64,000 nt of DNA from a virus: positions 21,178-85,177 of the IMG/VR virus record IMGVR_UViG_3300049215_000527; one strand, 5' to 3'. A program made the position numbers and the translations under genes. Positions 3,001-33,200 of the stretch are shown here, one piece after another (position 1 is the first letter of the stretch; every line of letters begins with the position of its first letter). The notes beneath the pieces were generated by a model. The model was not told where the DNA came from. It saw nothing but the letters and a program-made list of their open reading frames with translations, and made no database searches.

Positions 3001-3116
3001 CCCCATGGGTGGATCTCGATTGGACAGAGGCCGACGAAGCCGCCGCTGATGCGGCTTGGGCAAACGTCTTTCCCCCGAAAGATGCCTCTGCTGAAACCCC
3101 TGCCACCGAGGAATAA
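12..3116 (+). CDS. Portal protein C-terminal part fused to 2H phosphoesterase and GNAT domains (frame open to window edge, 5' partial)
   Basis: Portal-like C-terminus (LTWGGIEE...GVLTRLQAKRVLKLP) at the head of the morphogenesis arm; acidic linker; two HxT motifs (MHITL, PHATL); GNAT motif A (TGQGLGTRVF) and NGYYTWPRLGY. Confidence 0.7.
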   Translation: MDELAFTETSNRSVGDSQEAVTYRNAIKPRSDYLARYITRIAHRYDGTPLLSHAPTVSRRNAPTKSRGEWDARYKLTWGGIEEPDDFATKAQAVQGLMTSGVLTRLQAKRVLKLPIDQGEQDTPPFTVFNGGMSAVIPLQDIDGSRKAIMAQLQAQSQSAQVGVQTAQAGLKIQQDQGKMLDNQVSQAAQQQQSPDQSDQGGDEGEGQPPPDDGSQGPDNGPTGTPPTPPAPKGSKGKASAAPSADTSGDDEGENTDQGDTGAGNDAAAEAEVDALIAQAKAKAAAKGKKTQRAQAVDDVYLPMPPIAEDTASEWRRYREFALNRVKRGLAITPFTSDVLPTHLHTYAADALQRATTPDAVRAVFAEIRDAETHPTDCRCMVCGCGEPGNDHGMPYPVIIPGDTENEGCMVAFFLPASLSQQLAIPGGMPQQDMHITLAMLAKDITETPVNKARLLAAVQQWATTQTPIQVDLDHLTRFDGDTETYPVVVRSYTQALMDLRADLVAALDNAGIAIDTTYPDYKPHATLCYLPQGSPLPAVPEPNVHGNLSQVWVAYGDERYAYPLGGNDDTANMAETPVNDAVVQELRAMRTDVLALLGSEVVQPPFPLAVQQADEQRWAEHEIVRGAGGKIIGNIYDGVFHPVSGMPHAEIRAALPHVDPTFHRAVASYLGNHPQNMAEQANYWQDKQHLTTLLRQVDPLEKMIDAAKREVSFHTWNAQVSAHGQSQLDAANRNLAELLSLQKELAEEIHNTQSRLQASPVAASIHLLPPTVIHERADTQQTIQATFGRALSDQEVASLVGAQHGDLVTVTTIGGGSALQLHLYQPDGLYEAQRTVERDPTTGQIALDNSAFQVRDTGQGLGTRVFIDQVRSAAALGVATILTVGGKGNVTTDLGVMTNANGYYTWPRLGYTGSLMADFADKASQALGYRVTTVMDLMQTPEGRDYWRANGYQTDLYFDLRPDSPSRQILAAYAAAKGLDTTGVQRMQQPDDPQTPPWVDLDWTEADEAAADAAWANVFPPKDASAETPATEE

Positions 3117-3209
3117 CCCACTTACCCTCATACGTTACGCGCTGCGATGACTCCCCGTCATCGCATCCTCGCCCTGTTCCCTGAATCTGCCCCCTAGTGA
3201 GGTCCCGCC

Positions 3210-5183
3210 ATGCTCTCGCTCTCTGCCCTCCAAGCCTATATCGCCCAGATTCAGTGTGACTGTGACCGCGTGTGGATCGCCGAGCAACTGCGGGCGCTGC
3301 ACGATGAGTCCGATGATCCCACCTATCGCATGCAGTTGGCGGAGTTGCAGCGGTTCGCCTGTGCCAATCCGATCTTTGGCTACCATCACTATTTCGCAGG
3401 CTGTGCTGATGGCGGTGGCAACAAGGCGGTGGTGCGATCTGATGTCAGTAAGATGGCAGGGATGCAGCATGAGGTGGATCTGCATGAACTAGAAAAGTCT
3501 GATAGATCCGACCGTGAGGCTCTCGATCAAAAAGCGGATCTCGAATCTAAGGCGCTGGCAGCGGCCCAAAAGATGACGCCTGAAGAGCGGCAGGTACTTT
3601 CCGATCATCTGGATCGTATTCAGTCCCAAGTACAGCGCCTGAACGCCGATCTTATCCATGCGTTTGAGAAAAACCCTGAAGCCGATATGAATGACCCCCA
3701 TATTCGCAGCGTTGCCGAGCAACTGCGTACACGGCAAGCGGAAGCGCACATGCTATCCACGCATCTGAGTCGTGCGCAGAATGAAGAGAACGCTCGGCAA
3801 GGGCGTATCGCTGCTTTCGCCAAGTCGATGGCAAAGGATCATGAAGCAGGGCTCAAAAACGTGCAGGAAGCGAAAGCAAGGGATGCCGCAGCCGCAAAGG
3901 CCAAAGCCGATGCCGTGCAAGCGAAAGCCGCGAAAACCGCCGCCCTCGCCCAAGCACGTGCAGAACGCGAGCAACGCCGCCTTGAAGAGATTCAGATGCG
4001 TGAGAATGTGCGTCGCGCGAAGGCGCAGATTGAGATTCGCTACGCCCGTGAGGCTGTGAAGGCTGCTCGCAGCAAACTGGATGATGCGGTGGCGAAACAG
4101 CGCCCCGCCAAATCCATTGCCTCCGCCAAAGAGAAGTTGCGCCAAGCGCGTTTGCAGGTACAGATCCTAAACGCCAAGGAAAAGAACCGTCAATCGGTGC
4201 AGATGAAACTTGACCTAGCCGAGGCGGCCAATAAGCCCACCCGCAAAGCATCGTCCAAACGGGCAATGGTAGCAGACCTCATCCAGCGTACCATGATGCA
4301 GGCCAATATCCTCCGGTTTGGCTGCACGCCAGAGAACGTGATTCGAGGGTATAACGGCCATTTCGCAGGATGTGCGGGTGGCGGTTCCACGGGTAAGGCA
4401 GTCCATTCCCAAGTCATTCACACCCGTGGTGGGATGAAAGCGGAGATCGATCTGCGGATGCACGAACGCGATGCAAAAGCCTTTGTTGCCAAGAATGGTG
4501 CTGCCCAGTACAAGGCGGTGCATGATGATCTCGTGCAACAAGCGAAGGCGGGGGCGGCGCAACTGACGGCAGCTGACAAGACCATCTTGCAAGCCGACCT
4601 CAAAAGCGTGTTAGCTAAGGCGGCGGCGATTGAGCGCAATGGGCAAAGTGCCACGTATTTACGGGATGAGGCGCTGATGTTGCAGCGGCAGTTACAGCGG
4701 GCAGGGGTGACAAAAAGCGCAGGCAAGGCGACGGGGAAACAAAACGTTCCCAGTGCTCCGAAACCCGCCCATAAAACCAGTAACATCCATCCATCCTTTA
4801 CAGTGCCAAAATATGATTTTGATCCGCTGGCCCCGATCAATCCTCGTGCAGTGCATCTCATGTATGGCACGGATAAGTTTCGCCAAGCACTTGTCGAGGA
4901 AACGTTGGCGGGACTGAAAACGGCAGCCAGATCCTGGGCGAATGCCCATCCGGCAGATGGACAGCCCGCATCGTACTCAAAGAAATCGGATCTCGTGGAC
5001 TATTTGTTTGATCGGGTCACCAAACATGATGGCACGATTGCATCATCTGCCGATGTTGCCGCTGCGGTGGCAAAAGAGCCAGTGGTGGATGCGCCGCTTC
5101 CTCCTACTTCTCGTGCCATCCAAGCCACCCTCGTCGCCACCCGTCTCGCGCATCTACGCACCCAACTCGACCGCGTGAAGTGA
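3210..5183 (+). CDS. Modular head-associated protein (two repeated N-terminal units, coiled coil, one SAP/HEH-like repeat)
   Basis: 657 aa ORF between portal and MuF; duplicated R-F-x-C...FAGCAxGG unit; C-terminal helical repeat shared with 8356-11487. Confidence 0.7.
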   Translation: MLSLSALQAYIAQIQCDCDRVWIAEQLRALHDESDDPTYRMQLAELQRFACANPIFGYHHYFAGCADGGGNKAVVRSDVSKMAGMQHEVDLHELEKSDRSDREALDQKADLESKALAAAQKMTPEERQVLSDHLDRIQSQVQRLNADLIHAFEKNPEADMNDPHIRSVAEQLRTRQAEAHMLSTHLSRAQNEENARQGRIAAFAKSMAKDHEAGLKNVQEAKARDAAAAKAKADAVQAKAAKTAALAQARAEREQRRLEEIQMRENVRRAKAQIEIRYAREAVKAARSKLDDAVAKQRPAKSIASAKEKLRQARLQVQILNAKEKNRQSVQMKLDLAEAANKPTRKASSKRAMVADLIQRTMMQANILRFGCTPENVIRGYNGHFAGCAGGGSTGKAVHSQVIHTRGGMKAEIDLRMHERDAKAFVAKNGAAQYKAVHDDLVQQAKAGAAQLTAADKTILQADLKSVLAKAAAIERNGQSATYLRDEALMLQRQLQRAGVTKSAGKATGKQNVPSAPKPAHKTSNIHPSFTVPKYDFDPLAPINPRAVHLMYGTDKFRQALVEETLAGLKTAARSWANAHPADGQPASYSKKSDLVDYLFDRVTKHDGTIASSADVAAAVAKEPVVDAPLPPTSRAIQATLVATRLAHLRTQLDRVK

Positions 5184-6980: not shown

Positions 6981-7235
6981 ATGGATGCCTATGCACGATT
7001 TGCGATCATTCAGGCTGGTTTGCCCCATTGGATGCGCAGAGAAGAGGCCATCTCACTGCTGAAAACTTCTGGTTCCCAACTTTCGAGATGGTGCAAGGCT
7101 GGCGTAATTACAAGCCGAAAAGATTTGAGTGATTTTCGCATTGTCTGGTTGAAACGCAGTGACGTGGAGCAACTCATTGTGAAGCGAGAAAATTCCTCGG
7201 CCCAAAATTGCTCAGAGATCGGATTGCTAAAATGA
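6981..7235 (+). CDS. Second excisionase/MerR-like HTH protein
   Basis: WMRREEAISLLKTSGSQLSRWCKAGVI...WLKRSDVEQL; GGAGG RBS before ATG 6981. Confidence 0.75.
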   Translation: MDAYARFAIIQAGLPHWMRREEAISLLKTSGSQLSRWCKAGVITSRKDLSDFRIVWLKRSDVEQLIVKRENSSAQNCSEIGLLK

Positions 7236-7836
7236 CTCATTCCCGAAACGCATCTTTGTAATGTTCGGGTAAGGTCATGCACACCAACGATGTAGATCCG
7301 CAAAAATGCGAATCCTCAATCTGACTTTTCCTTGCTGCTGCAATTGGATGGCGCTGATTGCACTCACCCCCCTTGTTCAATGTGTGCCACCCTGCCACAA
7401 AAGCCGTCAAATGCCAAAACTCAACTCGCACGTTACACGGTTGCTTGCCAAGAATGGGAAAAATCCAGCACCTCAATTCCTCCAAAGCATGGTTTTAGGC
7501 CAGTTGAGGCGGTCTTTTGCCCGATTTTGGGAAGGATTGAGGTGCAAAAATTTGACGGCCTGTTTTCGGACACGTGGGACCCGATCCACTTACGAATGAT
7601 TGCCTGCCTGTTGAGTTGAGAAATCTGCCGTTAGCTATTTCGTAATGTCCGGCAAGTAGTTAATCAATCACTTGATTGGCTGGTGTGCGAGGTATGGGTG
7701 ATGGGACCGATGGCAGTGGTGACGGTGGCGGGTGACGGTGGTGGTGGCGAGTGACCGCCAGGTATGAGGTACGTGCGATGCTGACTCCCCAAGCGTTACA
7801 GGATTATTGTGGAATGACACGATAAAAATCTCATCT

Positions 7837-8104
7837 TCGCCAGGATTCCTGTCCCCAAAATGACATCAATCCAGGAGTACCCAGAGATGTGCTGCTTAAC
7901 TGCTTTGCCATGATTCGCGTCGAGATCATGTACCCCTTTGCGAATGCATGAATTGATGCCTCGCAACGCTTGCTGTCCCGACGCGAATCATGGCAAATGG
8001 GATAGTAATGATGGCATTCAGAATCGGGATCATTGCGCGGGACAAGAATCATGGCAACGACCAAACGTGGAACCCGCTTTTTACGTGCGCACGAATCCTG
8101 GCAA
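7837..8104. repeat. Array of five GAATC(A/C)TGGC(A/G)A motifs (two inverted, three direct), including a perfect 19-bp inverted repeat
   Basis: tttgccatgattcgcgtcg (7904-7922) is the exact reverse complement of 7979-7997; further copies at about 7837-7848, 8046-8057 and 8093-8104. Confidence 0.85.
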
Positions 8105-8134
8105 CGCGGACTTTTATCCTGTCAACCCACACTG

Positions 8135-8350
8135 ATGTCCCCCACCCCTGACTATCCCGCCGTGATTCGTGCCGCTGGCCCTGATGCCATGCATGCCTAT
8201 GACGCCCTCATCCAACGCCTCACCGCCGCCAATGGCGCGGCGGGGCCAGCGACGCTGTACCCTGAAGAGGTCGAACTGCTGGTGCATCAGGCGGGTGGCC
8301 CTATCCCACCAGACCTCTTGCAGCACCCCATCCCCCCTGATACGGAGTAA
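8135..8350 (+). CDS. Small hypothetical protein
   Basis: 71 aa ORF ending 5 nt before 8356; AGGPIPPDL resembles AGKPIPDDL in the next ORF. Confidence 0.5.
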   Translation: MSPTPDYPAVIRAAGPDAMHAYDALIQRLTAANGAAGPATLYPEEVELLVHQAGGPIPPDLLQHPIPPDTE

Positions 8351-8355
8351 CGCTG

Positions 8356-11300
8356 ATGGTTGCGCGCCCGACGCTAACTGAACTACGGGCGCGCCTCACC
8401 CGCATGCAAGAGGCCGTCGTTGCCCGTGACTATCATCCCGATCAACCTCGCACAGCAGATGGGCGGTTTGGCTCGACAGGTGGCAAACCTGTCGACCTCT
8501 TGCTCAATCCAGGCGACGACATGGGCAAGTACGCCAAGATCATTGCCAAGGCGGCAGGCAACGAAGAGATCGTTGGTCAGTGCTCCCATTGCTCGCGCAT
8601 GCTTTCTGGCCCGCTAGCAGGTAAACGCATCGGAGTTATCGTGCGCAAAAACGCCTGGACCACTGGCCTCAAGACGGGCTTCTCGCATGGGGTATGTCGG
8701 TCATGTCAGAAGGACTGGCTCATCGATGTCTATACCAAGAAAGGGTTGACACCTGAGCAGGCCACGGCACGGGCGACGCTCTTTCAGGCGGGCAAACCCA
8801 TCCCTGATGACCTGCGTACCGAGGCGGAAAAGGCCCAGCGTGCCATGACCCCCGATGAAGCATACGCCCTACTGCGTCAGGCCCAGGCGGCACGGTTACA
8901 GTTGGTGCGCACTCGCCTGGCGCTGCACATCCTGCGTGTGCGAATGGCCGATGAGACCCGCTATGAGGGTGGGTTGAATGGGCGCATCCCCTTGTTCGCA
9001 ATGGGTGCCGATGGTAAGATGCACTTCGCAGGCAGTACACCAGGGGCGGGCAAGGCCCCAATTCCGACATCGCCGGGCCATCTGCACATCCCTGGCGTGA
9101 CCCATGTCGCGCATACCGATGGCAAGGGCGGGGGGGTGAAAGCGAGTGGCAAGCATGGTGCAAAGACCCCATCCGTCGCCGATCTGCACCATGCGTCCCG
9201 CGCATGGCAAGCAGCGAACCCGCACACCCCAGAGACGCCACCTACGCCCGTCGATCAACTGGTGCTTGTCCAGCCCGTCGATATGCGGGAAATTGACCCG
9301 TATACCCATCCCGATGCCCACCGACTCGCCAGCATCTTCGGCGAGCATCAGGTGGGGGCGGCCATCAGCAACTTCACCGTTAGCACCTTGCAGCAGATGG
9401 CAAAATCCCTGGGCATCTCCACCACGGGCATGCGCAGCAACCATGATGCGTTGGTCTCGGTCATCACAGCGCATGTAACAAATGGCCACTACAGCGCCGA
9501 TTTCGGCACGCAGACGGCGACGGGCAAGACGGCGGGGACGAAAGCCCAAAGCGAAGAGGCGGGAAGGTTCCCAGCCGCACGGATAGAAGAATTGAAGAAC
9601 CGCGCCCTATATGGCGATAAAACGGCGCAAGAAGAGGTCATGAATCTCCTGCGCGATCATTTTCACGATCCTGAGTCCAAAAGTGTTGCCACGGACAGCG
9701 AAAAGGCGGCCCGTGCCGCCGATCTCATGCTGCAATATCGGGGTCGCTATGAGAGGGAGCAGTCCGGCTACCTTACGGATAACGGTAGACCGCTTTCCCG
9801 TGCGGCTGATCCCGCATTGTTCTGGCACGCGGCTGGTGGCGACCCGGAACTCATGGAACTCATGTTGAAGTCTGGCGTGGGAGGCATGATGCCGCATTAT
9901 CTGCGTCAGCATCCCGATATGCTAGGCATGGAACGATTTAACAATGGCCAGGTGAATCGCGACCCATCACCAAAGGAAATTGTGCAGGCGCTGCAACTGC
10001 AACATGACGGTAAAGTGACTTGGCGCGTTGGTTCGGATGGCGGCGCACCCCCCAACCCTGCTGATCCCCGTGCCGCCAACTACCTCGCCGACATGGCCCG
10101 CCTACGCGAGACCCATGCGGCGTATCTGGCTGATACCCCTGCCGTGGCCAAAGCACATGATGCGGCGACAAAAGCCGCACGTGGGGGGACGAAGGCAAAA
10201 GAGCCGACAGCCAACCAACAACTACGCATCAATCAGCACCAAGTCGTCGATCGACTGGTTCCTATTCAGACTGGGCTTCGGTTTAACGCCTTCAATCTGT
10301 TAGATGATGCGAGCCTCACGAGCGCCCATCGAACCTTTGGCTCTGATCAACTCAAAGACGCCATTTATGCGAATCCCACAGCAGACCTTCGCGCGAAAGC
10401 GCAAGAGATGGGTATTTATCGAGCAGGGATGACGCATGAAGATTTGGCCCGTACAATTGCTGCCGCCTGGATTGCCAAAGAGGGCCACATTGACGGCCCG
10501 CCCTCTCATTTGGATGAGATATTGGCTCAGACGAGCAAACCCGACGCCTATACGGGTGCGGATCTGGTGCCGATCTCGTCGGCGGTGGGTTACAACATCA
10601 ATGTGTATGGCCCGCCACAAGAGGATATCCTGCTCAAGATCTATGGCGCGGAACAACTGCCCAAGGCGCTCTCGCTGTTTAGTACACCCAAACTCAAAGA
10701 GGCGGTGGACAGGGCGATGACGAAGTATCCTGGCACCAAGCCCGCCAGCCGCACCAAACGCGAGGATCTCATTGCATATCTCGTACAGCAAGCGGTACAT
10801 CCGGGCGAACCGATGCCAGGTGCCAGTGCGGGTAAGGATCTTACTGGCCTCAAACCTTCTGGGGCGGCGACACTCGCCATTTTGGGGTCACAGTTACTTC
10901 AGTTGAAAGATCCTGGAGATCCAATCGAAGCGTGGCATCATTTTGGTGGCACGGCGGAGTCACTGCGTGCGGTCTTATATGAAGAACCCATTGGGTATTT
11001 ACGCGGTATGCTGATGCATCCCAATATGCCTCCTGGGCCATCCCCCCGTGGCAAATCGCGGCAAGTGTTGGCCGACAACATCGTCAAACGCCTCGATGCG
11101 CACTTCAATCCGCAGCCGCCCACCAGTGCGGGCAAGGGTCTTAGTGGCCTCAAACCCTCGGGGGTTGCGGCATCACCAGCCGACCCCTATCACACAATGA
11201 GTCCTCATGATCTGTTGCATGCGGTAGGCGAGGCTCAATTCCATGAGGCATTATCCCGTATGTCCACGGCAACCCTGCGGGAGATGGCAAAAACCTATGC

Positions 11301-20015: not shown

Positions 20016-21641
20016 ATGCCAAGTACACCTCGTGGGTATAATCTTTTCGTGCAGGAGAATACGAGCGGGCTGCAACAACTGCTCACCGCCACCGCCGTTT
20101 CTGCACTCCCTGTTGGCCTCACATCCAGCACGGCGCTGACCGCTGCCACCACGGGCATGCACCTGCTCATCCGCATCTACAACCACACCGCCACAGGCAC
20201 CATTACCGTGGCAGGCACGGCCCCGCTCACGGGTGGCGCGGTGAGTGAGACCACGCCCACCATTCCGGTTATGGAATCGCCTGGCACCTATTACGACTAT
20301 GTGACAACGAGCGTCTATGCCACCGTCACGGCCAGCACGGGCATCTCGGTGAGCGGCCTCACGGGGGGCAGTATCACCATCTATGGCATCCAGGCCGCCT
20401 CACGGGGTATGCCATTAGAGGTGAAATTGACCGACAAAAATAGCGTCTATGTCCCCGTGGCGCAACGCGGCGATTTCAGTCAGTCCCACGTGCGCGCCCT
20501 CAAGACGGCGGACAATCCTGAATGGGAGGCAACGGGTGCCCTGTGGCCGGATAGTGCCTCCCTTATCATCCCAGGGGCCTGGTCTACCTCGCCCACCTCG
20601 ACGCAGTTGCCCGGCAGCGCCATCAGTATCTTGGCCAGTACGGGCATCACCACAGGGTCAAATGCCAGCGCCGCCAACCAGCCCACGGCGCCCGGCATGA
20701 TCCTGAAATGCGTCATCTCCTCCTCGCCCACGACGGCGGCGACGGTGAGCGTCACAGGTACCAACCTCTATGGCGAGACCATCACCGAGGTGGTCGTGCC
20801 CAGCACCAAGAGCAACGGCACTTACTACTCGCAGAACTCCTTTGCCAGCATCGCTTCGAGCGGCATCGTGTATGGCAGCTTTGGCGCAGGCAACTTGGTG
20901 ATATCGGGTATCTTTGGCGCGACGCTTTCGGGCAACCTCGCCAACGCCCCCTACAGCACCTTTGCCATTGGCCAGTATGACGGCATCGGCAGTTACGTCG
21001 CGCCGTGGGCCACGGTGGAATCGTGGGAGATCACGGGTGGCATGGACAAGGAGTGTATGATCGCCCTCAAGGGTCCCTGTCAAGCCGTCCTGCCTGTGGG
21101 TGTGTATTCCACCACCACCAGCCAAATCCCCGCCCTGGTCAACCCCATCGACGAGCCCATCGTGGGCTGGCGTTCCCTCGTCTTCATCGACGCCATCAGT
21201 GGCACGGCGGGCACGACGCAGTTTTTGGACGTGATGGAGTGGAAAGTAGCGGGCGTCATGAAGACCAAGACGACGCACCGCTCAGCCTTCAATCCCCCTG
21301 CGACGTTCTGGTCGGCACTGGACTATGGTCGCCACGAACTCTCCTGCGAACTGAAAGTCTATATGGATGCTACGGCGTACCAGAACGAGTATGCCCTCGC
21401 ATTCAAACAGGGCAAGAAGCGCCTCGTGCAGATCCAGCTCTACGGCGGGCCGAACCTCTCGGCGGCCAACCAGCAGGGCTTGACGCTGACCTTCCCCTGC
21501 GAATGGGTGGAAGATCCCCAGCGCGTCTTCACCCTCAATCAGGAGTATGTCGAACTGACGCTCAAGGGTGATATCTACCGCGATGACGCCCTGGGCTATG
21601 ACTTCAACTACTCCTGGAACACGCGCTTCCCCACGTACTAG
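20016..21641 (+). CDS. Major tail tube protein with two duplicated beta-sandwich inserts
   Basis: Tube-like C-terminus (WEITGG...ELSCELKVY...LTLTFP...ELTLKG); internal repeats GM.L...T.TV.GT...G...E. Confidence 0.75.
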   Translation: MPSTPRGYNLFVQENTSGLQQLLTATAVSALPVGLTSSTALTAATTGMHLLIRIYNHTATGTITVAGTAPLTGGAVSETTPTIPVMESPGTYYDYVTTSVYATVTASTGISVSGLTGGSITIYGIQAASRGMPLEVKLTDKNSVYVPVAQRGDFSQSHVRALKTADNPEWEATGALWPDSASLIIPGAWSTSPTSTQLPGSAISILASTGITTGSNASAANQPTAPGMILKCVISSSPTTAATVSVTGTNLYGETITEVVVPSTKSNGTYYSQNSFASIASSGIVYGSFGAGNLVISGIFGATLSGNLANAPYSTFAIGQYDGIGSYVAPWATVESWEITGGMDKECMIALKGPCQAVLPVGVYSTTTSQIPALVNPIDEPIVGWRSLVFIDAISGTAGTTQFLDVMEWKVAGVMKTKTTHRSAFNPPATFWSALDYGRHELSCELKVYMDATAYQNEYALAFKQGKKRLVQIQLYGGPNLSAANQQGLTLTFPCEWVEDPQRVFTLNQEYVELTLKGDIYRDDALGYDFNYSWNTRFPTY

Positions 21642-23556: not shown

Positions 23557-23827
23557 GCCACTCTCCCGCGAGTTTCAGTTAGATGATGCGGAGATCGAGG
23601 CTGATCTGGATCTGTTCGTGAAGGAAGCCATCCTCGACTATCGGGTCTGCGAGAAGCGCGGCTACGCCTTCCTGCATGACCACCCGCCGACCGCAGCGTA
23701 TGTGTGGCGCACCGAAGCCATTCTGGCGGCGGAGGCAGCGGCCACGGCGCACATCGAGAACAAGCACGCCCAACGGCTCAAGGCCGAGTCTGATGCGCTC
23801 AAAAGCCAGATGCACACCCGCCGCTAA
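23531..23827 (+). CDS. Second tail assembly chaperone (putative, T-like)
   Basis: Overlaps the previous ORF in the +1 frame. Confidence 0.5.
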   Translation: MVQAIFTSEPLSREFQLDDAEIEADLDLFVKEAILDYRVCEKRGYAFLHDHPPTAAYVWRTEAILAAEAAATAHIENKHAQRLKAESDALKSQMHTRR

Positions 23828-23840
23828 AGGATACCTCGCC

Positions 23841-25592
23841 ATGACCGATCTTGCCACCCTACGCACCCGTCTCATGGCCATTCGTGCCGCCCTGCCAGAC
23901 TCGCCAGAGGTGGCGCTCTTGCGGGCGTACCTGCCCACGGCACCGGACCCCGCACGGGTGGCGCTGGCCATCGCGTATCTGCAAGAGGCGGCGGTGACAC
24001 GGTACGAGGGGCAAGAGATTGTGCGCGGCCCCAACGGGCGCATCGTGGGCAATATCGGTGTAGGTTTGGGTGCGGAGCGATCTGCACATGTCCTCATGAA
24101 TCGTTACGGCGACCATGTGGCAAAAGGGAAAGATCCGGAAACGTTTACCCACAAAGGACTACACGGCACAAAGGACGTTGATGCCCATTTGCAAGAACTC
24201 GGTCATAAGGCCGATGCCCATGCGGCGGCGTACACCTCACAGCAAGTGGATAAGTTGATGGCACTCCATGCCCAGGCGGAAGAGGCACTGATGCGTGGCC
24301 TGGCACTGGGGTTTGCGACCAAAGCTGAGGCTGCCAAGGCGGCACGGGAGCAAGATGTCCTCAAAGCACACCTGCACCGTGTGGCAAGCCGATCCCCCGC
24401 CCAACGCGACCGCATCAATCAGTATCTCAACGGTCGCCGCGCGGCACGGGATCAGATTGCGCGAGACATCGACCGTGCCAAGTTGCAACAGATGGCGGCG
24501 AAACTGCGCGAACACCAGCAAGCCGCAGTCGAGGTGACGCGCTACGCGGGACAGGTAGCGATTCATGGCGCAGGTGGCCGTATCATCACCAATGTGAGCG
24601 CAGGTGGTGGCAAAACACCAACGGGCGGCGGGGCGAAATCTGCCAGAGTCCCCTCGGCCAGCAAGCCCCCCAAGGCCAGTGGCGCGAAGGCGGGTAAGGC
24701 CACCAGCGCCAAAGCGTCCTCACAGGAAGTCAAACAGATCCCCATCGCCGCCATCCACACGGGCCTCAACCCGCGCGAGTTCTTCGACCCCGCCAAGATC
24801 GCCGAACTGGCACAGAGCATCAAAGGGCATGGCCTGTTGCAACCCATCAGTGTGCGGCCCCACGAGGGCGGGTATCAAGTCATTGCGGGTGAGCGGCGCC
24901 TGCGCGCGCTGCAAGCCTTGGGCATGACGCATGCCCCCGTCATTGTCCATCAGGTGGATGATCAGACGGCGCATGAGTTGGCGTTGATTGAGAACATTAA
25001 CCGCGAGGATATGCGGCCCGGCGAGACAGCCCGCGCCTATCAGAACTTGCTCAATAGCGGCATGACGATCAAGGCCCTGGCCGAACGCACGGGCAAATCC
25101 ACCGATGCCATCCAGGCCCACCTCGACCTCTTGACGCTGCCCATCCACCTGCAAGCGTTGGTGGATAAGGGCAAGCTGTCAATGGGGGTCATCCGTGGCT
25201 TGGCCCGCCTCAGTCCTAAAGGGCAGGAGGCGGCGGCAGAGCGCATCTTGCGCGATGACCTGGGCGTGAAGAGCGCCAATCGCCTCATCAAGACCATCAG
25301 CGAACGCGAATCCCAGACCAGTCTCTTTAGCGAGGTGCAGCCCGTGAGTCAAGCCGCCCATGACGCCCAAGCCGCATACCAAGACACCATGACCCGCCTC
25401 ACCGAGATGCTGTCTGGCATGGATGACGCCCACGTAACGTTGGCCGCCCAAGCGACTGACACCCCGTTACGGGAATCCGAGCGGTTGGGGCTGATGATCA
25501 AGCAACTGCAACGCATGCAGGGGGCAATGGAGACGGAGCATTACCGCCGCGCCGAACGCTCGGCACGGGCCACGCTGGTGCGGATCAGATGA
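23841..25592 (+). CDS. ParB/Spo0J-domain protein with an N-terminal cargo-type extension
   Basis: LNPREFFD...LAQSIKGHGLLQPISVR...IAGERRLRAL...ALIENINREDM plus HTH; two TR|Y..G linkers upstream. Confidence 0.9.
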   Translation: MTDLATLRTRLMAIRAALPDSPEVALLRAYLPTAPDPARVALAIAYLQEAAVTRYEGQEIVRGPNGRIVGNIGVGLGAERSAHVLMNRYGDHVAKGKDPETFTHKGLHGTKDVDAHLQELGHKADAHAAAYTSQQVDKLMALHAQAEEALMRGLALGFATKAEAAKAAREQDVLKAHLHRVASRSPAQRDRINQYLNGRRAARDQIARDIDRAKLQQMAAKLREHQQAAVEVTRYAGQVAIHGAGGRIITNVSAGGGKTPTGGGAKSARVPSASKPPKASGAKAGKATSAKASSQEVKQIPIAAIHTGLNPREFFDPAKIAELAQSIKGHGLLQPISVRPHEGGYQVIAGERRLRALQALGMTHAPVIVHQVDDQTAHELALIENINREDMRPGETARAYQNLLNSGMTIKALAERTGKSTDAIQAHLDLLTLPIHLQALVDKGKLSMGVIRGLARLSPKGQEAAAERILRDDLGVKSANRLIKTISERESQTSLFSEVQPVSQAAHDAQAAYQDTMTRLTEMLSGMDDAHVTLAAQATDTPLRESERLGLMIKQLQRMQGAMETEHYRRAERSARATLVRIR

Positions 25593-25607
25593 GGGAGGGA
25601 TAAGGAT

Positions 25608-26072
25608 ATGCTCGGTGGCGCATATGAAATGACCTTTGACGCGGCGTCCATTCGCCGCATTGCCGCGCTGGTCTATGCCCAACCTGTCTTCGAGATGTAT
25701 TATCGCTCGGCGATGCGGGCATCCGTCAATCGGGTCAATGCCTTGGCGCAGAAGAATGCCCCAGTGGGGGACTACCCCAATGAAAAGAATCACACCGGAG
25801 GCAATCTACGGCGGGGCATTCGCGGGTTTGTGGACACCCCCTATCGGGGCCGAGTTGGTGTATTGGCGAGTGTCCCGTATGGCGCCCGGCGCGAGTTCGG
25901 CTTCGATGGCAAGACGGATAGCATGGGGCGGTACTACCCAATGGACCCCAAAGACGCGGATAAACGCAGCCACATGATGTATGTTCATCGGGCGCTAGAA
26001 GCGTCCCTGCCCTACATTGCCAGTGCATTCAAGGCATCCACCTCACTCGCTATCCGGAAGATCGTCATGTGA
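25608..26072 (+). CDS. HK97 gp10-like tail completion protein
   Basis: AQKNAPVG...GNLRRGI...VPYGARREFG...YVHRAL. Confidence 0.8.
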   Translation: MLGGAYEMTFDAASIRRIAALVYAQPVFEMYYRSAMRASVNRVNALAQKNAPVGDYPNEKNHTGGNLRRGIRGFVDTPYRGRVGVLASVPYGARREFGFDGKTDSMGRYYPMDPKDADKRSHMMYVHRALEASLPYIASAFKASTSLAIRKIVM

Positions 26073-27005
26073 GAAGAGGGTGCCTTGCGTGGGTGGGGTG
26101 AAAGCGGATGATGTCGTTTGTTGCTCTCGTTGCAACCTCCGCGCTTCCCTTGCCTTAGCAAGGCCCGCAATGCCTTGAGCGCGAAATTGCTCTCTTTCTT
26201 CAGGGGTCATGCGTTCCAAGCGGTGTTTTGCGCCAACACTTCGAGATTGACTCTTGATCCCCCGCTGGCTCTGGGCAACCTTGGCGATAATCGCTTGACG
26301 TTCTTCTTCGGTTCTCTTTGCCCACATCTTTTTAAGAGATTCCGTTTGTTTCTGGCGCGTTTCCTTTGAGACTTTTACTCCCCTTCTCTTCTCGTAACGT
26401 TCCTGTTCCTTCTCGGTTAAAGGTCTCTCGTGCCGACGGGCGTTGCCATCAATTTGCGCTTGCGTTAATCCTCTTGCTTTCATCCGTGCATATCCTGCTT
26501 GTTGTGCAGGTGTTAATGGCGCGCCTTTACGGCGTTCACGTGAGGCTCGTTCTGCTTCCGTCGGCGCACGTTCTTTACGCATGTCGTAGGCTTTACGCAT
26601 ATTCTCGGTCACCCGCCCACGCCTCTTACGCGCCGCATCTCTATTGGCTTGCAATGCCTCAGGGGTGAATTGAATGCCGAGGGTACTCTGCGCAATTGGG
26701 GCCATATTGTAGCCGTGATTGCCCGTTTCTTCCTGTTGTTTCTGAAACCAGTAATTCTCCCGTTCAAACAATTGCGAAGGTTCCACTTCCTCAATGATTT
26801 CAAAACGGAAGGATTCCTCACCGTACTTGTTCCAGGCTCTTTGGAGTGCAATGGAATGGTGCGTGCCTGCACGTAAGAGATGGTAATGGTGATTTCTGCG
26901 TAGCCGAACGTTGACAGCACTTCCCACGTAATATTTGCCACTAGGAACACAGTAAATGCGGTAAATGCCGCTCACGCTGGGGATGTCTGAGTATGGCAAT
27001 GGCAT
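26043..27005 (-). CDS. Free-standing GIY-YIG homing endonuclease with NUMOD3-like repeats
   Basis: SGIYRIY...YYVGSAVN...R...H...LQRAWNKYGEESFRFEIIE...ERENYW; basic C-terminal repeats. Confidence 0.93.
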   Translation of the reverse strand: MPLPYSDIPSVSGIYRIYCVPSGKYYVGSAVNVRLRRNHHYHLLRAGTHHSIALQRAWNKYGEESFRFEIIEEVEPSQLFERENYWFQKQQEETGNHGYNMAPIAQSTLGIQFTPEALQANRDAARKRRGRVTENMRKAYDMRKERAPTEAERASRERRKGAPLTPAQQAGYARMKARGLTQAQIDGNARRHERPLTEKEQERYEKRRGVKVSKETRQKQTESLKKMWAKRTEEERQAIIAKVAQSQRGIKSQSRSVGAKHRLERMTPEEREQFRAQGIAGLAKAREARRLQREQQTTSSAFTPPTQGTLFSHDDLPDSE

Positions 27006-27151
27006 GGACTTCTAGCTCCTACCAACTAGCTCCTACACACATGCACCGCCAGAGGGAGTAGGAATTCCCCTTTTCAGCGCGGTTCATGAGGCCACACTTA
27101 GACGGCAATCTTACTATACCATTCTTTTGCGAACGGGCAAAAACGGATCTG

Positions 27152-27183
27152 AACGAGGCGGTACTATCTAGTACCGCCTCGTT
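27152..27183. terminator. Perfect 14-bp hairpin between the endonuclease and tape measure genes
   Basis: aacgaggcggtact-atct-agtaccgcctcgtt. Confidence 0.6.
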
Positions 27184-27237
27184 GTTACAGGAGAGGAGCA
27201 AGCTACGGATAATTCACTCGTGCTTACAGTATTTATC

Positions 27238-30234
27238 ATGGCGCAAAACATGTTGGGCAACACCCTGGCCAAGATTGGGATCGATGCCCAGGCAGCCATG
27301 TCTGGCTCGATGGGGGTGGCGGGATTAGCCACCGCCGCCGTGGTGGGCCTGGGTGCTGGGGTAGCAGCGGTGGGTGTGGCCAGTATCAAGGCCGCCTCCA
27401 CCTTCCAAACCCAGATGGCCCGCATCAGTGGCCTCACGGGGTCATCGACGGAGCAGGTCAAATACTACCAACAACAGATCCTCGCCCTCTCGCCCACCTG
27501 GGACATGTCAGCAACCGATGCCGCTAAGGCCCTTTACTTCATCATTAGCGCGGGCTTCAGTGGTTCCAAAGCCATTGATGTGCTGAACTATTCCGCGAAA
27601 AGTGCCACCGCGTCCTTGGCCGATCAGGCCACGGTGGCGGACGCGCTCACGAGTATGCTCAACGCTTACAAAGACTCGAACATTTCCGCTGCGGAAGCCG
27701 CCAATGATCTAACCAAGATCGAGATCTACGGTAAGGCGCAACTGGGGTCATTCGCCTCATCGCTCGGCTTCACGATGGTGACTGCCCATGCTGCGGGGAT
27801 CAGCATTTCCGAGGCGTCCGCTGCCGTAGCGGATCTGAGCCAGGTGTCGGGCAACCACGGTATTCGGCGTAGACATGCATGCGCCTTTGGGGAGCAATCC
27901 CCATCGAAGAACTGTTCTGAATTCGGCGAAACCCCCAACTATGCCGCCGCATAAGTGGGCAACGCCGAGCGAACCGCCTCAGTGTTGAGTGCGGGCGTGT
28001 AGAGACTAAGTGAACGGCTCCCTACAGTGTCGTAGGGATGGAGCCATAGTCCGACCTGCATGGGAACATGCAGAGGCCAGCAGAAATGCCTGGTCCCGCC
28101 TTCGGGTGAGTAACAATGTTTGATGCAAAACGAGTTCGACAACCTCGCGCGATCCCTCCTGGATATCAACGCCATCGCCAAAAGGGCTAAGGCGCAGGGC
28201 CTGAACTTCGACGCCAATTCCTTTGCGACGATGACGTTTATCCAGAAGTTACAGTACCTGCAACATATCTCAGGAGCACTATCCAGCAACATCAACGACG
28301 AAACCTACTCCATGATGAAGAGCACCGACGCCACCCAGAACCAGTTGGCGGTGACGGCGCAGTTGGATCTCCACCTAGATAAGGCCAATTCGTCTTTCAT
28401 GAAACTCACCGGGGGCGCGGCGGCCTTCATCCCCGCTGCCATTTTGCTTTCCGGTAAAGCCTCAGAGTACAACATGATCCTGGGGCAGATGCATAACCAG
28501 ACCGATCTGGTCACGGCAGCCTTCCTCAACATGCGTGGCACCTTGGCACAATCGTTAAAGATGCTGGAAATTCGTTTCCAGAACATCTTGATTGTGTTGG
28601 GCTTACAACTCATCCCCGTCGTCACCAACGTGGCCAAGAGCTTCCTCGGGGCTGTGGATGGGGTCATGGCCTTTGTACAAAGCGCCAATGGCCTCGAAAT
28701 TATCAAGCAGGGCCTCATCGGTCTGGCCATTCTGCTCACGGGGGTCGTCGTTCCCGCCATTGTGAGCGCCGTCATGGCGGCGGCGCCGTTCACGCTCACC
28801 CTCATCGCCGTGGCAACGGTCTGCATTTTCCTAGGCAAAGCCGTCGAGGCCGTCGTCGCGCACTTTGGCGGGATGGATAACATCCTGCGCATGGTGCATC
28901 CCGTCATTGCTGCCATCGGGCAGGCCTTAGGCATGCTGGGGCGGGACTTGCATAAATCGCTTGCCAATCCCGCCATGCAGCAGGGCCTACAACAACTCAA
29001 GCAGGCCTTTATTGAACTCCTGCCGACCTTCAAGGCATCGGCGATCTTTGCGGGCATCATCCTGGTCGTTGCCCTCAAGCTCTTCGTCGTCGCCCTGGAC
29101 GTGGTGATCAAGATCATCCCTATCGCTGTGCGAATCATCGGCACCATCGCACTCGTCCTGGCGACGGTAGCCGCCGCCTTCACCCAGTTTGTGACGCACA
29201 TCCCGCAACTCTGGTCGCAGATGTGGTCTACCATCGGGCGGGCCATCGGCAACTTCTTCTCTGGCCTGGGTACGATGGTGCATAATGGTCTCGGCAAAGT
29301 CGGGGAGTTTTTCGGCGCGGCCTTCGCGGCGCTGGGGCGGGTGATCGATGATTTCGCCACCCTCACCCCGCAAAAGATCGAGACCGCCATTGGCTATGCC
29401 ATCGGCTTCCTGATTGCCCTGCCTATTCGGGGCGTGGAGTTGGTGGTGGGCTTTACCCTGGCGGCCATGCGCGCCATCGACCGCTTCGTCGTGTCGTTGC
29501 CTGCCCGTATCGCTGGCATGGCGACCGTGGCCGTCCTGGCCATCGGACGGTTCAAGACGGCGGCCATTCAAACGTTCGTGACATTTGTCACGAATGCCAT
29601 CACGACCATTCAACGGCTCATCACCGAGGCCCCCGGCGTGCTGTTGCAGATGGCCATCGCCATGATTACCCGGCTCAAGCAACTGGTCGTTGATGGGGCG
29701 AAGCAGACGTATGACTTGGGCGTTGCCATCATCAATGAACTCAAGAAACTGCCAGGACAAGCCCTTGCGGTCATCAAGGATTTCATCCAAGGGATCATCA
29801 ACGGCATCAAGAATGGCGCGGGCGCAGTGTGGGATGCCATCAAGAACATGGCGGGTGGCATGATCAACGGCTTCAAGAATGCCCTGGGCATTCACTCGCC
29901 CTCCACCATCATGTTCGCGATGGGCACCAACCTCAGTCAAGGCCTCATCAACGGCTTCAAGAGCCTCGATGTGGCGGGAGCATGGCTGGCACACACGGCG
30001 GGCCTCACCAATCCGCTCGTCGCACCGGGTCTTGCCACCAGTGGCATCAGTTCGGCGGCGTTGGCGGGGGCAGGGGGGGGTGGCACGGTGGCTCCCGTCT
30101 ACAACGTCACCATCCATGCCCTGGATGGCAAAGATGCCGCCAATCAATTTGAGAAGATGATCATCCGACACGAGCAAACCACCTATCGTCGCAGCCGCCG
30201 CCCCGGTGGCTACAGTGGCGTGAACGCAGGATAG
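27238..30234 (+). CDS. Tape measure protein, two exons (27238-27870 and 28123-30234), about 914 aa spliced
   Basis: TP901-type TMP core (FQTQMARISGLTG...AAKALYFIISAG), hydrophobic repeats, KNALGIHSPS; exons join in frame as GNHGIRR|MQNEFD. Confidence 0.9.
27871..28122 (+). ncRNA. Self-splicing group I intron (252 nt, no ORF)
   Basis: P1 ggcgU.Gcgcc wobble; IGS tgcat pairs with 3' exon atgca (P10); P2 with GCAA loop; P3 ctgttc/gaacgg; P4 ttcggcg/cgccgag; P7 gacta/tagtc; P8; P9 ctgcatg-ggaa-catgcag; terminal G; in-frame stop inside. Confidence 0.93.
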
Positions 30235-30238
30235 AACG

Positions 30239-33200
30239 ATGACGAACGCAACCACCCTTCAGTTGGGTTTTTGGCAGCAATCCACCGATCAGTTTGTGGC
30301 ACACCCGAATAGTCCCACCGGAGCCATCCTCAACCTCAATGATGGTGTGACCTACACCCTCATGGATAAATCCGGGGGCAAGGGGGAAGGCTTTGACTGG
30401 GGGACATTGAAGCGCGAGGTACTGTCCACGGGCAACCCACGCACGGTGGGCGAGGTCATCACCGTCGCCAACTACCGCGAGAACCGCGAACTGAAACTCC
30501 ACCTCTATCTGGGACCAGCGGCAGCCTTTGTCACGCTGGACACGGCGCTGCACAACCTCGTGCAACTCTGTCGGGGCATCACCAAAGAGTATCCAGGGGC
30601 GTTACAGTTTCAGTATGTGGGCATGGCCACCCCCATCTACTTTGATGTCCTGGAAGCGCACGTCGATGACCACTACCAGGAGTTGATGTGGTGGCAGGGC
30701 GTGGATGACACGATTGAGGTGACGTTCACCGTCAAGCCCTTTGCCCGTGGCGCCCGCCAATGGTTGCAAAACCTCGTCAACAATCCCGGCGCGGAGACCC
30801 CCTCTGGGCCAGGGGTGAGCGTGTTTACGGACACGCTCACCAACACCAATGCCTACCAGGCCACGGCGTACCTCAATGCCGTCGAGACGGATACCCCGTT
30901 GCGGCTCTACACGCTGGGGGACAACGCAGGGCAAACCACCGTCGTGGATTTAGGCAGTCAACTGCAAAATGGCACGGTGACGGGCGGCGTCACGCTGGGA
31001 CAATCCGGCGATCAGTTGAACTACACGGCGGCCTTGCTCAATGGCACCACAGGCTATATCACGATGCCCAGCCCTGGCACATTGCCCACGGGCAACGCTG
31101 CATGGAGCCTGGAGGCCCTGGTCAATATCGCCAGTAACCCATCCAGCACGGCCACGGTGGTGGGCATCGGCACGAGTACATCCAGCAAGAGCGTCGGGCA
31201 GATCCTCATCACCTCCTCTGGCGTCCCGCAGGCGGATGTCAACGGCAGTACCGTCTCCGGCACGGCGCTCTCGACGGCCACGTGGCATCATCTGGTGGCA
31301 ACGTATGACGGCACAACCTTGAAACTCTACGTCGATGGCAGTAGCGTCGGCACCCCCACCACACCAGGGACGCTCTCCCTCACGGGGGCCTATGCTACCA
31401 TTGGGGTGCGACCCGCTGCCTCGACAGGGGCCTTCTTGCCCGGCACGGTGCAGATGGTGGCGGTGTATAACGCCGCACTCACCTCGACAAGGGTCACAGC
31501 ACACTATACGCCACTTTCCTACTCTTACAGCACGCAGGACAAGCTGACCTACCTCGATGTCGTGCTGGCCGATGCACCTGTACGCTACTATCGCATGGAT
31601 GAGGCCAGTGGCACGACCTTGCATGACGCGATGGGCAGTGGCAACAATGCCACGACGCATGCCAGCCCCACGCTGGGGGCGACGGGCCTGCTCACGGGCG
31701 ACAGTGATACGGCGGTGACGTTTGCGAGTGCCAGTAGTCAATATGCGAGCATGCCCACGACGGGCTTGCCCAGTGGCGCGATGACGGGTGGCGCAACGCT
31801 GGAATGCCTCATCAAATATGTTTCGCAGCCTGCGTCGGGCGATAACGTGATGGTGCATTTTGGCACCCCTGGCAGTGCGGGCGAGGATTTCAATATTGCC
31901 ATCGACGGCACGACGAAGAAGCCGTGGGTATCGATTTGGGGCACGAACTCCCTGGGCAGTGGTGCCCTCAGTAATGCGACGACCTATCACGTCGTTGGCA
32001 CCTACGATGGCGCGCAGATGCGCCTGTATGTCAATGGCTCGCTGGTGGCGGGTCCCACGACGGTCTCGGCCAATATCGTGCTGGCCACCGCCTCCATTGC
32101 CTATGGCGACACCGCAAGCACGTATACCTCGGCCACCATGGATGAGGTGGCCATTTACAACTATGCGCTGTCCAGTGCTCGCGTGACGGCGCACTATACC
32201 GCCGCCACCAATGCGCCATCGACCACCACTAACACCCTCTCGCTGCCTGCTGGGGCGCAAGTAACCTTCGGCAGTCCGGCCTGGACGGGCATCAATCAAT
32301 GGCAGGTGCGGTTCCGCTGGACGGCATCCCTTACGGCCAACTTTTACATCCACTACCTCAATCCCAGTAACTATCTCTTGGTGCAGGCGCAAAGTAGTAG
32401 TTTGAACCTTATCAACGTCGTGGCTGGGGCTAGTACCACCATCGCCACCAATGGTTCAGTCTTTTACGTTCCTGGTATGCAGTATTGGGTGCAGATCACG
32501 CAGTTTCCCTTTCTCCCTCAGGTGCAAGCTGGCCCCTATGCGTTGGGGGTGACCTCAGGCTCGTATGTCCAGGCAACGCTGCTCGCGGATAGCGCGGGCG
32601 CGCCGGGCAATAGTATCCTGACCATTGGTCCCGCCGCCAGCACCGATACGGGATCGGCTTACACGGGTTCTGGGGTGACCTCCTCGCTCGTGGGGCGTTG
32701 CCAGATTGGCGCCGTCGGCGCGGCGCTGGGGCTCGGCGGCAACTTCAGCAACATCAATCAGGTGCAGTTGTTTGGTCCGGGTGGGTGGGGGTACAGCAAT
32801 ATCAGCGCGCCGACAGGTCCCAGTAGCGGGGCGTGGGAGACGTATGCCAGCGCCTACAATGCGGGCAACACCTATGGCGGCGGTCCCGTCGTCTCGTATG
32901 GCGCGGGGCGCATCGACTGCGCCCCAGCGGGCACGGTAAATGCCCAGTGGCTCTCTGGCACGGCCGGCAGTAGCACGGCGATGATCCTGACAGGCATCGC
33001 CGCCACGCAAAACCTACCCGTTGGGAGCCAGGCGATTGGCCAAGTCTTTGGCGTGAGTGCCTGGGTCAAAGCGCCGCTCATCGGTGCCAGCGCTACCGTG
33101 ACGCTGAGCGTCATCGAGTACAACAGCAGCGGCGCGGTGACGACGAGTGGTAGCGTCGCCACCCACACCGGACCCCTGAGTAGCTATACCCAACTTAGTG

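Follow-up and report, generated by a model that had tools for sequence, protein, structure and literature searches.

Free-standing homing endonucleases of phage T4 cleave DNA at distances of hundreds to thousands of base pairs from the genes that encode them and spread by break repair, and the T4 seg genes, which encode free-standing GIY-YIG endonucleases, move by intronless homing (PMC2988022). A neighbouring intron can be carried along with such an enzyme. In collaborative homing, the cut lies at the intron site, and the described cases include the pairings of F-CphI and the psbA intron in cyanophage S-PM2, of a free-standing HNH enzyme and the DNA polymerase intron in T3/T7-like phages, and of T5orf172 and the neighbouring terminase intron in ICP1 (PMC3984707, PMC10448857). 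In trans homing, the cut lies merely nearby, as documented for T4 mobE, which mobilises the nrdB intron with its defunct I-TevIII (PMC2790892). Here we analyse a 64,000-nt stretch of viral DNA (the window; positions 21,178 to 85,177 of IMG/VR record IMGVR_UViG_3300049215_000527, which comprises 85,269 bp at an estimated completeness of 83%), in which an antisense GIY-YIG endonuclease gene lies directly upstream of a tape measure gene interrupted by a group I intron that lacks an open reading frame (ORF). The locus is made up of the following elements, numbered by window position.

26043–27005, minus strand: gene of a free-standing GIY-YIG homing endonuclease of 320 residues (P0001), from its ORF and its Pfam and PHROGs matches
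27003–27108, minus strand: structured 5′ leader RNA with three helices, int-alpA-like, ending in two Shine-Dalgarno-like boxes and the AUG, from Rfam and our own covariance models
27113–27140, minus strand: promoter-like site (TTGCCC, 16 nt, TG-n-TATAGT), from pattern
27152–27183, no strand assigned: 14-bp hairpin with arms at 27152–27165 and 27170–27183 and a 4-nt loop, from sequence
27238–27870, plus strand: tape measure exon 1, 211 codons, ending in GIRR with U as its last base, from PhageMin_Tail and PHROGs matches
27871–28122, plus strand: ORF-less group I intron of 252 nt at site A, from its RF00028 match
28123–30234, plus strand: tape measure exon 2, 703 codons, from tape measure PHROGs matches

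The first-pass annotation of the window had pointed out the antisense GIY-YIG gene, its tail-to-tail overlap of 30 bp with the ORF at 25608–26072 (at 26043–26072), a duplicated taggagctag in its leader, a 14-bp hairpin, a start about 870 bp from the intron, and the lack of an ORF in that intron. All of these hold: the hairpin is perfect, the distance from the ATG at 27005 to the insertion point at 27870/27871 is 865 bp, and the two minus-strand copies of taggagctag turn out to be the two boxes of the leader, one of which contains the Shine-Dalgarno sequence. Profile searches of the entire 85-kb record for GIY-YIG, HNH, and HNH_3 returned this GIY-YIG gene only, with no HNH or HNH_3 domain, and a search of the record with RF00028 returned this group I intron only. 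If uniform placement is assumed, the chance that two such single-copy features fall less than about 1 kb apart in 85 kb is approximately 2–3%.

With moderate confidence, we favour a model in which a self-contained mobile cassette cuts endonuclease-free relatives in or near the tape measure start and the intron hitch-hikes by co-conversion. The cassette, inserted antisense and directly upstream of the tape measure gene, would comprise in order an insulating hairpin, a σ70-like promoter with an extended −10 element, a leader of ~100 nt that keeps translation of the nuclease low or timed, and the GIY-YIG nuclease itself. In a mixed infection, the enzyme would cut endonuclease-free relatives in or near the 5′ part of their tape measure gene, and repair of the double-strand break would transfer the cassette, together with flanking DNA, to the genome that was cut. 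At a distance of 865 bp, the 252-nt intron lies within reach of co-conversion and could hitch-hike, as in trans homing, without being an obligate partner.

Seven relatives were retrieved by scans with a narrowed alignment of exon 1 homologues and were read by tblastn, by Rfam searches, and from their ORF lists. No relatives came from single-protein scans of viral contigs (with the endonuclease or exon 1), a DNA search of the phage collection with window positions 25000–30300 gave no match, and a tape measure domain scan of 169 genomes of the class of a Ktedonobacteria metagenome-assembled genome (MAG) had that MAG, the source of locus L010, as its sole match. The resulting set comprises eight loci including the window, several of them on short contigs, and contains introns at two sites, namely site A, which is occupied in the window, and site B, which is not.

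27529–27537, plus strand: site B, uninterrupted in the window, codons A-L-Y of KALYFIISAG, from comparison with L007 and L009
Window, 85-kb record: endonuclease present; intron at site A
L004, 7-kb contig with exon 1 77% identical: antisense endonuclease of 363 residues with leader; intron at site A
L005, 17 kb: no endonuclease or leader; intron at site A
L007, 1.5 kb: leader and first 28 endonuclease codons at the contig edge; intron at site B only
L009, 1.8 kb: endonuclease present; intron at site B, with the contig stopping before site A
L008 (identical with L003 and with record G170), complete 102-kb genome with terminal repeats: endonuclease of 319 residues in the same place; no intron
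L006: no endonuclease; no intron
L010, contig of the Ktedonobacteria MAG: no endonuclease; no intron

The endonuclease is present directly upstream of the tape measure gene in five loci (window, L004, L007, L008, and L009) and absent from the other three (L005, L006, and L010), a presence/absence polymorphism among relatives that is the pattern of a mobile element. Endonuclease and intron are independent of each other. Specifically, four loci have both, one has the endonuclease only, one has the intron only, and two have neither. The complete 102-kb genome G170 carries a single GIY-YIG gene and is devoid of group I introns, site A of L007 contains no intron, and the 17 kb of L005 contain neither endonuclease nor leader, despite intron A. 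An intron is thus found in the tape measure N-terminal domain in four of the five endonuclease-bearing loci, and the association (4/1 versus 1/2) is not significant among these mutually related loci (one-sided Fisher p ~0.29). The first-pass annotation had proposed that the enzyme cuts the intron-less junction cggcgt/atgcaa and had named co-occurrence in related phages as a check on this proposal. The independence seen in G170, L005, L007, and L009 goes against it, disfavouring both an obligate partnership and that target, which has proximity as its basis.

Because the association of endonuclease and intron is loose, the trans homing model fits the locus. As at T4 mobE/nrdB, the neighbouring free-standing enzyme would not need to cut the intron site, since co-conversion would carry the intron. 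The T4 system pairs an HNH nicking enzyme with a decayed endonuclease ORF in the intron, whereas the present one pairs a GIY-YIG enzyme with introns that show no trace of an ORF. The known cases of collaborative homing are defined by cleavage at the intron insertion site. The present locus differs from them in its GIY-YIG enzyme and its tape measure host gene, and its relatives include an endonuclease without an intron, an intron without an endonuclease, and introns at a second site. A cut elsewhere nearby, combined with co-conversion of the intron, would fit this distribution at least as well as a cut at the junction.

The endonuclease gene and its leader form a portable cassette. At the tape measure gene, the endonuclease is antisense to it in the window, L004, L008, and L009, and the other neighbour varies, being a gp10-like gene in the window, an ORF of 553 residues in L008, and a chaperone-like ORF in L004. 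Because the cassette stays at the tape measure start while its other flank varies, the target is probably on the tape measure side. Leader and GIY-YIG gene also occur together in two unrelated contigs (L025 and L030), where they lie antisense between the major head gene and connector genes. The enzymes of the window, L004, L008, and L009 can be aligned over their full length and have catalytic residues and repeat motifs in common, with pairwise identities of 29–44%, and the flanking tape measure exon is 55–77% identical among these relatives. Because the catalytic domain of the window is closer to those of unrelated contigs (50% identical to L025, L030, and L012) than to those of its same-locus relatives (29–33%), turnover of the endonuclease at the upstream site is suggested. 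In a tree built from 82 catalytic domains, support was too low either to establish or to rule out that the tape-measure-linked enzymes have a single origin, and pairwise identities alone were therefore used.

The GIY-YIG gene is an intact I-TevI-type endonuclease gene, whose product is predicted to be an active nuclease. Three parts of the protein can be delimited on the DNA.

26697–26972, minus strand: catalytic domain, residues 12–103, from residue-by-residue alignment to I-TevI
26106–26696, minus strand: basic all-helical region, residues 104–300, the presumed DNA-binding part, from model and alignment
26061–26075, minus strand: QGTLF motif in the disordered C-terminal tail, from alignment

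Residues 13–92 match the Pfam family GIY-YIG (PF01541, E-value 1e-9), and the PHROGs label is homing endonuclease. In the alignment of P0001 to the I-TevI catalytic domain (1LN0/1MK0, E-value 2e-12), all catalytic positions of I-TevI are retained (GIY, YVG, R36, H40, H49, E83, and N100), and Y15, Y26, G28, R36, H40, E83, and N100 are invariant in 32 homologues. The AlphaFold model of P0001 (predicted local distance difference test score, pLDDT, 83.8) has a confident N-terminal domain, helices over residues 115–300, and a disordered tail (pLDDT <50). The N-terminal domain of the model was placed by Foldseek on 1LN0 with a target template-modelling score (TM-score) of 0.87 and a root-mean-square deviation of 2.2 Å. 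Approximately nine NUMOD3-like repeats can be counted by eye in the helical region; NUMOD3 gives no Pfam match in P0001, yet PF07460 is present in most homologues. The closest homologue is 34% identical. The tail motif, Q-G/A-T/M-L-F, is common to the tape-measure-linked enzymes of the window, L004, and L008 only and is found in none of 84 other homologues. It resembles the bacterial sliding-clamp-binding motif, QL[SD]LF.

The cassette resembles the T4 seg genes in its I-TevI-like catalytic domain, in its intergenic insertion between essential genes, in its presence/absence polymorphism among relatives, and in a translational control by RNA structure that is likely here too. It differs from them in being antisense to the surrounding operon, in having a three-helix leader instead of a single hairpin, and in having a long NUMOD3-like helix array and no zinc finger.

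The leader is an RNA of ~105 nt, in the endonuclease's own direction, that ends at the AUG. Two leaders served as the seed of a covariance model, which was rebuilt once (models R1 and R2) and found seven leaders in 570 kb; all seven lie directly before GIY-YIG genes. An alignment of the leaders by MAFFT and RNAalifold was poor and was replaced by the covariance-model alignment. In the resulting fold, pairing extends to 94% of cells, compared with 37–61% in controls slid by 1–3 columns, and compensatory change is seen in 12 of the 18 pairs. The Rfam family int-alpA (RF02996) matches the window leader with 27.3 bits, below its gathering score of 35.8 bits; such sub-threshold matches occur in five of the seven leaders (27.3 to 35.5 bits, the best being L007 with 35.5), and none of the seven reaches the gathering score. 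The leader ends in two boxes that lie close to the start codon.

27012–27035, minus strand: two taggagctag boxes, box 2 at 27012–27021 and box 1 at 27026–27035, from sequence

Box 2, which includes the Shine-Dalgarno sequence, is 8–11 nt ahead of the AUG, and its copy, box 1, is located another 14 nt upstream. In the window, the loop of the third helix (P3), UCCUAC, is perfectly complementary to GUAGGA of both boxes. The same relation, with perfect complementarity over 6–7 nt between the third-helix loop and both boxes, is found in all seven leaders in five loop/box variants (UCCUAC/GUAGGA, CCCUA/UAGGG, CACCUUA/UAAGGUG, CCCUUA/UAAGGG, and CCCUUG/CAAGGG), and every leader's loop fits its own boxes at least as well as the boxes of the other leaders. 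Separately, the second-helix loop (window 27083–27091, minus strand) reads C-N-UCAUGAA, which is also found in the otherwise diverged leaders of L009 and L030.

We propose that the leader most likely restrains or times translation of the nuclease; for I-TevI, segB, and mobE, such control is known from simpler hairpins in which the ribosome-binding site is masked (PMC2988022). The leader has in common with int-alpA the three-helix layout, the GAAAAG joiner, and a CCU loop complementary to a downstream AGG box. In contrast to int-alpA, which is typed in Rfam as a small RNA, the leaders described here are located in front of endonuclease genes instead of integrase or alpA genes, and they carry a second box and a hairpin presenting the ribosome-binding site.

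Promoter-like sites occur in the region at chance level in number; the extended −10 block AAGAATG(n)TATACT (AAGAATGnTATACT) is conserved in all five tape-measure-linked loci, in which the whole intergenic region between endonuclease and tape measure gene is homologous. The 14-bp hairpin separates the promoter of the endonuclease gene from the ribosome-binding site of the tape measure gene. Its position is kept in the window, L004, L007, L008, and L009, and its sequence is different in each; it could insulate the two transcription units or mark an RNA processing site. T-runs flank the hairpin on one or both sides in some loci.

The intron of the window is a group I intron, as judged from its score (RF00028 match at 27861–28073, 55.9 bits, above the gathering score of 50), its P1 helix (GGCGU with GCGCC, with a U-G pair at the 5′ splice site), its terminal G, and a junction that restores the protein; self-splicing is predicted. 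Exon 1 covers positions 1–128 of the 201 positions of the PhageMin_Tail profile (E-value 1.4e-17), so the intron interrupts a conserved domain. The ligated sequence, HGIRR/MQNEFDNLARS, agrees with tape measure proteins that have no interruption (such as GIRRMANDLDFLMRAL in P0088), which were obtained by a search of 1.8 billion representative proteins. The window and L004 give a single blastn alignment with 71% identity that extends without a break from exon 1 across the intron into the beginning of exon 2, and the intron is therefore about as old as the split between the two phages. In the collection of protein homologues, P0179 (97 residues, from a JGI contig of 9725 nt) is an exon-1 fragment that reads through into intron A; its first 15 residues, immediately ahead of query residue 138, bear no relation to the tape measure protein and may mark a third interruption.

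Site B (window 27532/27533) falls within the Leu codon of KA-L-YFIISAG. It is situated 340 bp upstream of site A and is occupied by homologous ORF-less group I introns in L007 (597–842) and L009 (1361–1618). The Leu codon is TTG in intron-bearing alleles, which supplies the U required at the splice site, and CTN in intron-less alleles. The three site-A and two site-B introns are 51–74% identical, and their consensus fold has 65 pairs, 37 of which show compensatory change, with an invariant splice-site U-G pair. A pattern derived from the intron core found two further members in unrelated viral contigs, both in major head protein genes.

L093, about 4016–4235, minus strand: head-gene member of the intron family
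L094, about 3037–3254, plus strand: head-gene member of the intron family

No GIY-YIG gene or leader was found near either of these introns, and the intron family thus lives independently in several late genes.

Several points weigh against the favoured model. The comparison has eight loci as its basis, several of them on short contigs, and every relative is at least 25% diverged in DNA, so neither a recent filled/empty pair nor a co-conversion tract is visible. The cleavage site is not readable from the sequence, and same-locus enzymes with pairwise identities of 29–44% may differ in target. P0001 does not have a C-terminal module of ~30–60 residues that the enzymes of L004, L008, and L009 possess, and it could be weakened as a result. 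Finally, the covariation of the leader was counted on an alignment fitted to the model, a procedure that favours structure.

Strict collaborative homing, in which the enzyme would cut the intron-less junction cggcgt/atgcaa, the intron would protect its own genome, and both would spread together, appears unlikely. It draws on the closeness of the record's sole GIY-YIG gene and sole group I intron (865 bp) and the same arrangement in L004, on the observation that, at four of the five endonuclease loci, an intron interrupts one of the N-terminal domain's two most conserved motifs, and on the precedents in T3/T7-like phages, cyanophage S-PM2, and ICP1 (PMC3984707, PMC10448857). However, site A is uninterrupted in two endonuclease-bearing genomes (L008/G170 and L007), intron A persists without an endonuclease in L005, members of the intron family reside in the head genes of L093 and L094 without such an enzyme, and the association over the eight related loci falls short of significance. 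What stands of the collaborative homing proposed in the first-pass annotation is a free-standing endonuclease beside an ORF-less intron, a pairing repeated in four of the five endonuclease loci; joint inheritance does not. Since the enzymes are diverged enough to differ in specificity, the junction may still be a target. A CNNNG cleavage motif upstream of the junction was considered and dropped as uninformative.

It is quite improbable that the two elements are unrelated neighbours, with an enzyme that targets something other than the tape measure gene (such as the upstream gene or the intergenic site itself), an intron that spread alone (by reverse splicing or with an endonuclease since lost), and a closeness due only to the preference of both element types for conserved late genes. 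An independent spread of the intron would be consistent with the occurrence of its family in other structural genes and with the short 5′ exon context common to sites A and B (GCGT/GCCT), which pairs with the internal guide and thereby meets the requirement for reverse splicing. The catalytic domain, with its 50% identity to unrelated contigs against 29–33% to same-locus relatives, points in the same direction insofar as it suggests turnover. Against this reading, the attachment of the cassette to the tape measure start, next to a variable other flank, argues for a target on the tape measure side, and the adjacency of two single-copy features has a chance of only ~2–3%.

Very unlikely, finally, is an enzyme that no longer homes, whether decaying after fixation or retained for a function such as excluding competing phages or processing DNA, because intact catalytic residues, an open reading frame, a conserved and elaborate control of expression, and a presence/absence polymorphism typical of a mobile element outweigh the missing C-terminal module, the lack of a close homologue (best identity 34%), and the hint of host-protein contact in the QGTLF motif.

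A more far-reaching scenario, which we regard as doubtful, is that the tape measure N-terminal domain is a standing battleground, in which differing GIY-YIG cassettes replace one another at a fixed upstream site, each matched to one of two conserved target motifs in the gene, and one ORF-less intron family has been recruited at both motifs as an immunity device. If true, collaborative homing would operate here with a choice of two intron sites and with turnover of the endonuclease.

The remaining flank of the cassette is formed by the gene that the endonuclease overlaps.

25608–26072, plus strand: gp10-like tail/connector gene, last 30 bp overlapped by the endonuclease gene, from a weak Pfam match to HK97-gp10_like

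The gene itself, noted in the first-pass annotation, is present, but the gp10 label comes from a match below the Pfam cut-off (HK97-gp10_like, E-value 0.009). Homologues that are 49–50% identical occur at a different place in the gene order in L005 (5641–6093) and L008 (2793–3251), where they lie early in the tail module, before genes of 541/546 and 244 residues. In the window, the gene is relocated and lies after a ParB-like gene of 638 residues (23676–25592, plus strand), just before the endonuclease. Between the chaperone-like gene and the endonuclease, the phages carry large genes that differ from one to the other, namely this ParB-like gene in the window and, in L008, an ORF of 553 residues without a family match (7132–8793, plus strand).

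The GIY-YIG cassette at the tape measure start illustrates known mobile-element biology well, without being out of the ordinary. The locus adds tape-measure-linked examples of a leader that is predicted to mask the ribosome-binding site and that travels with phage endonuclease genes, and such a leader seems undescribed except as the orphan Rfam entry int-alpA. Known examples in which a free-standing endonuclease cooperates with an ORF-less intron are few, and they are the basis of the main model of how mobile introns arise. Here, one phage group offers a natural series, consisting of the endonuclease with a site-A intron, with a site-B intron, and without an intron, and of the intron alone, and this series could separate collaborative homing, trans homing, and independent spread.

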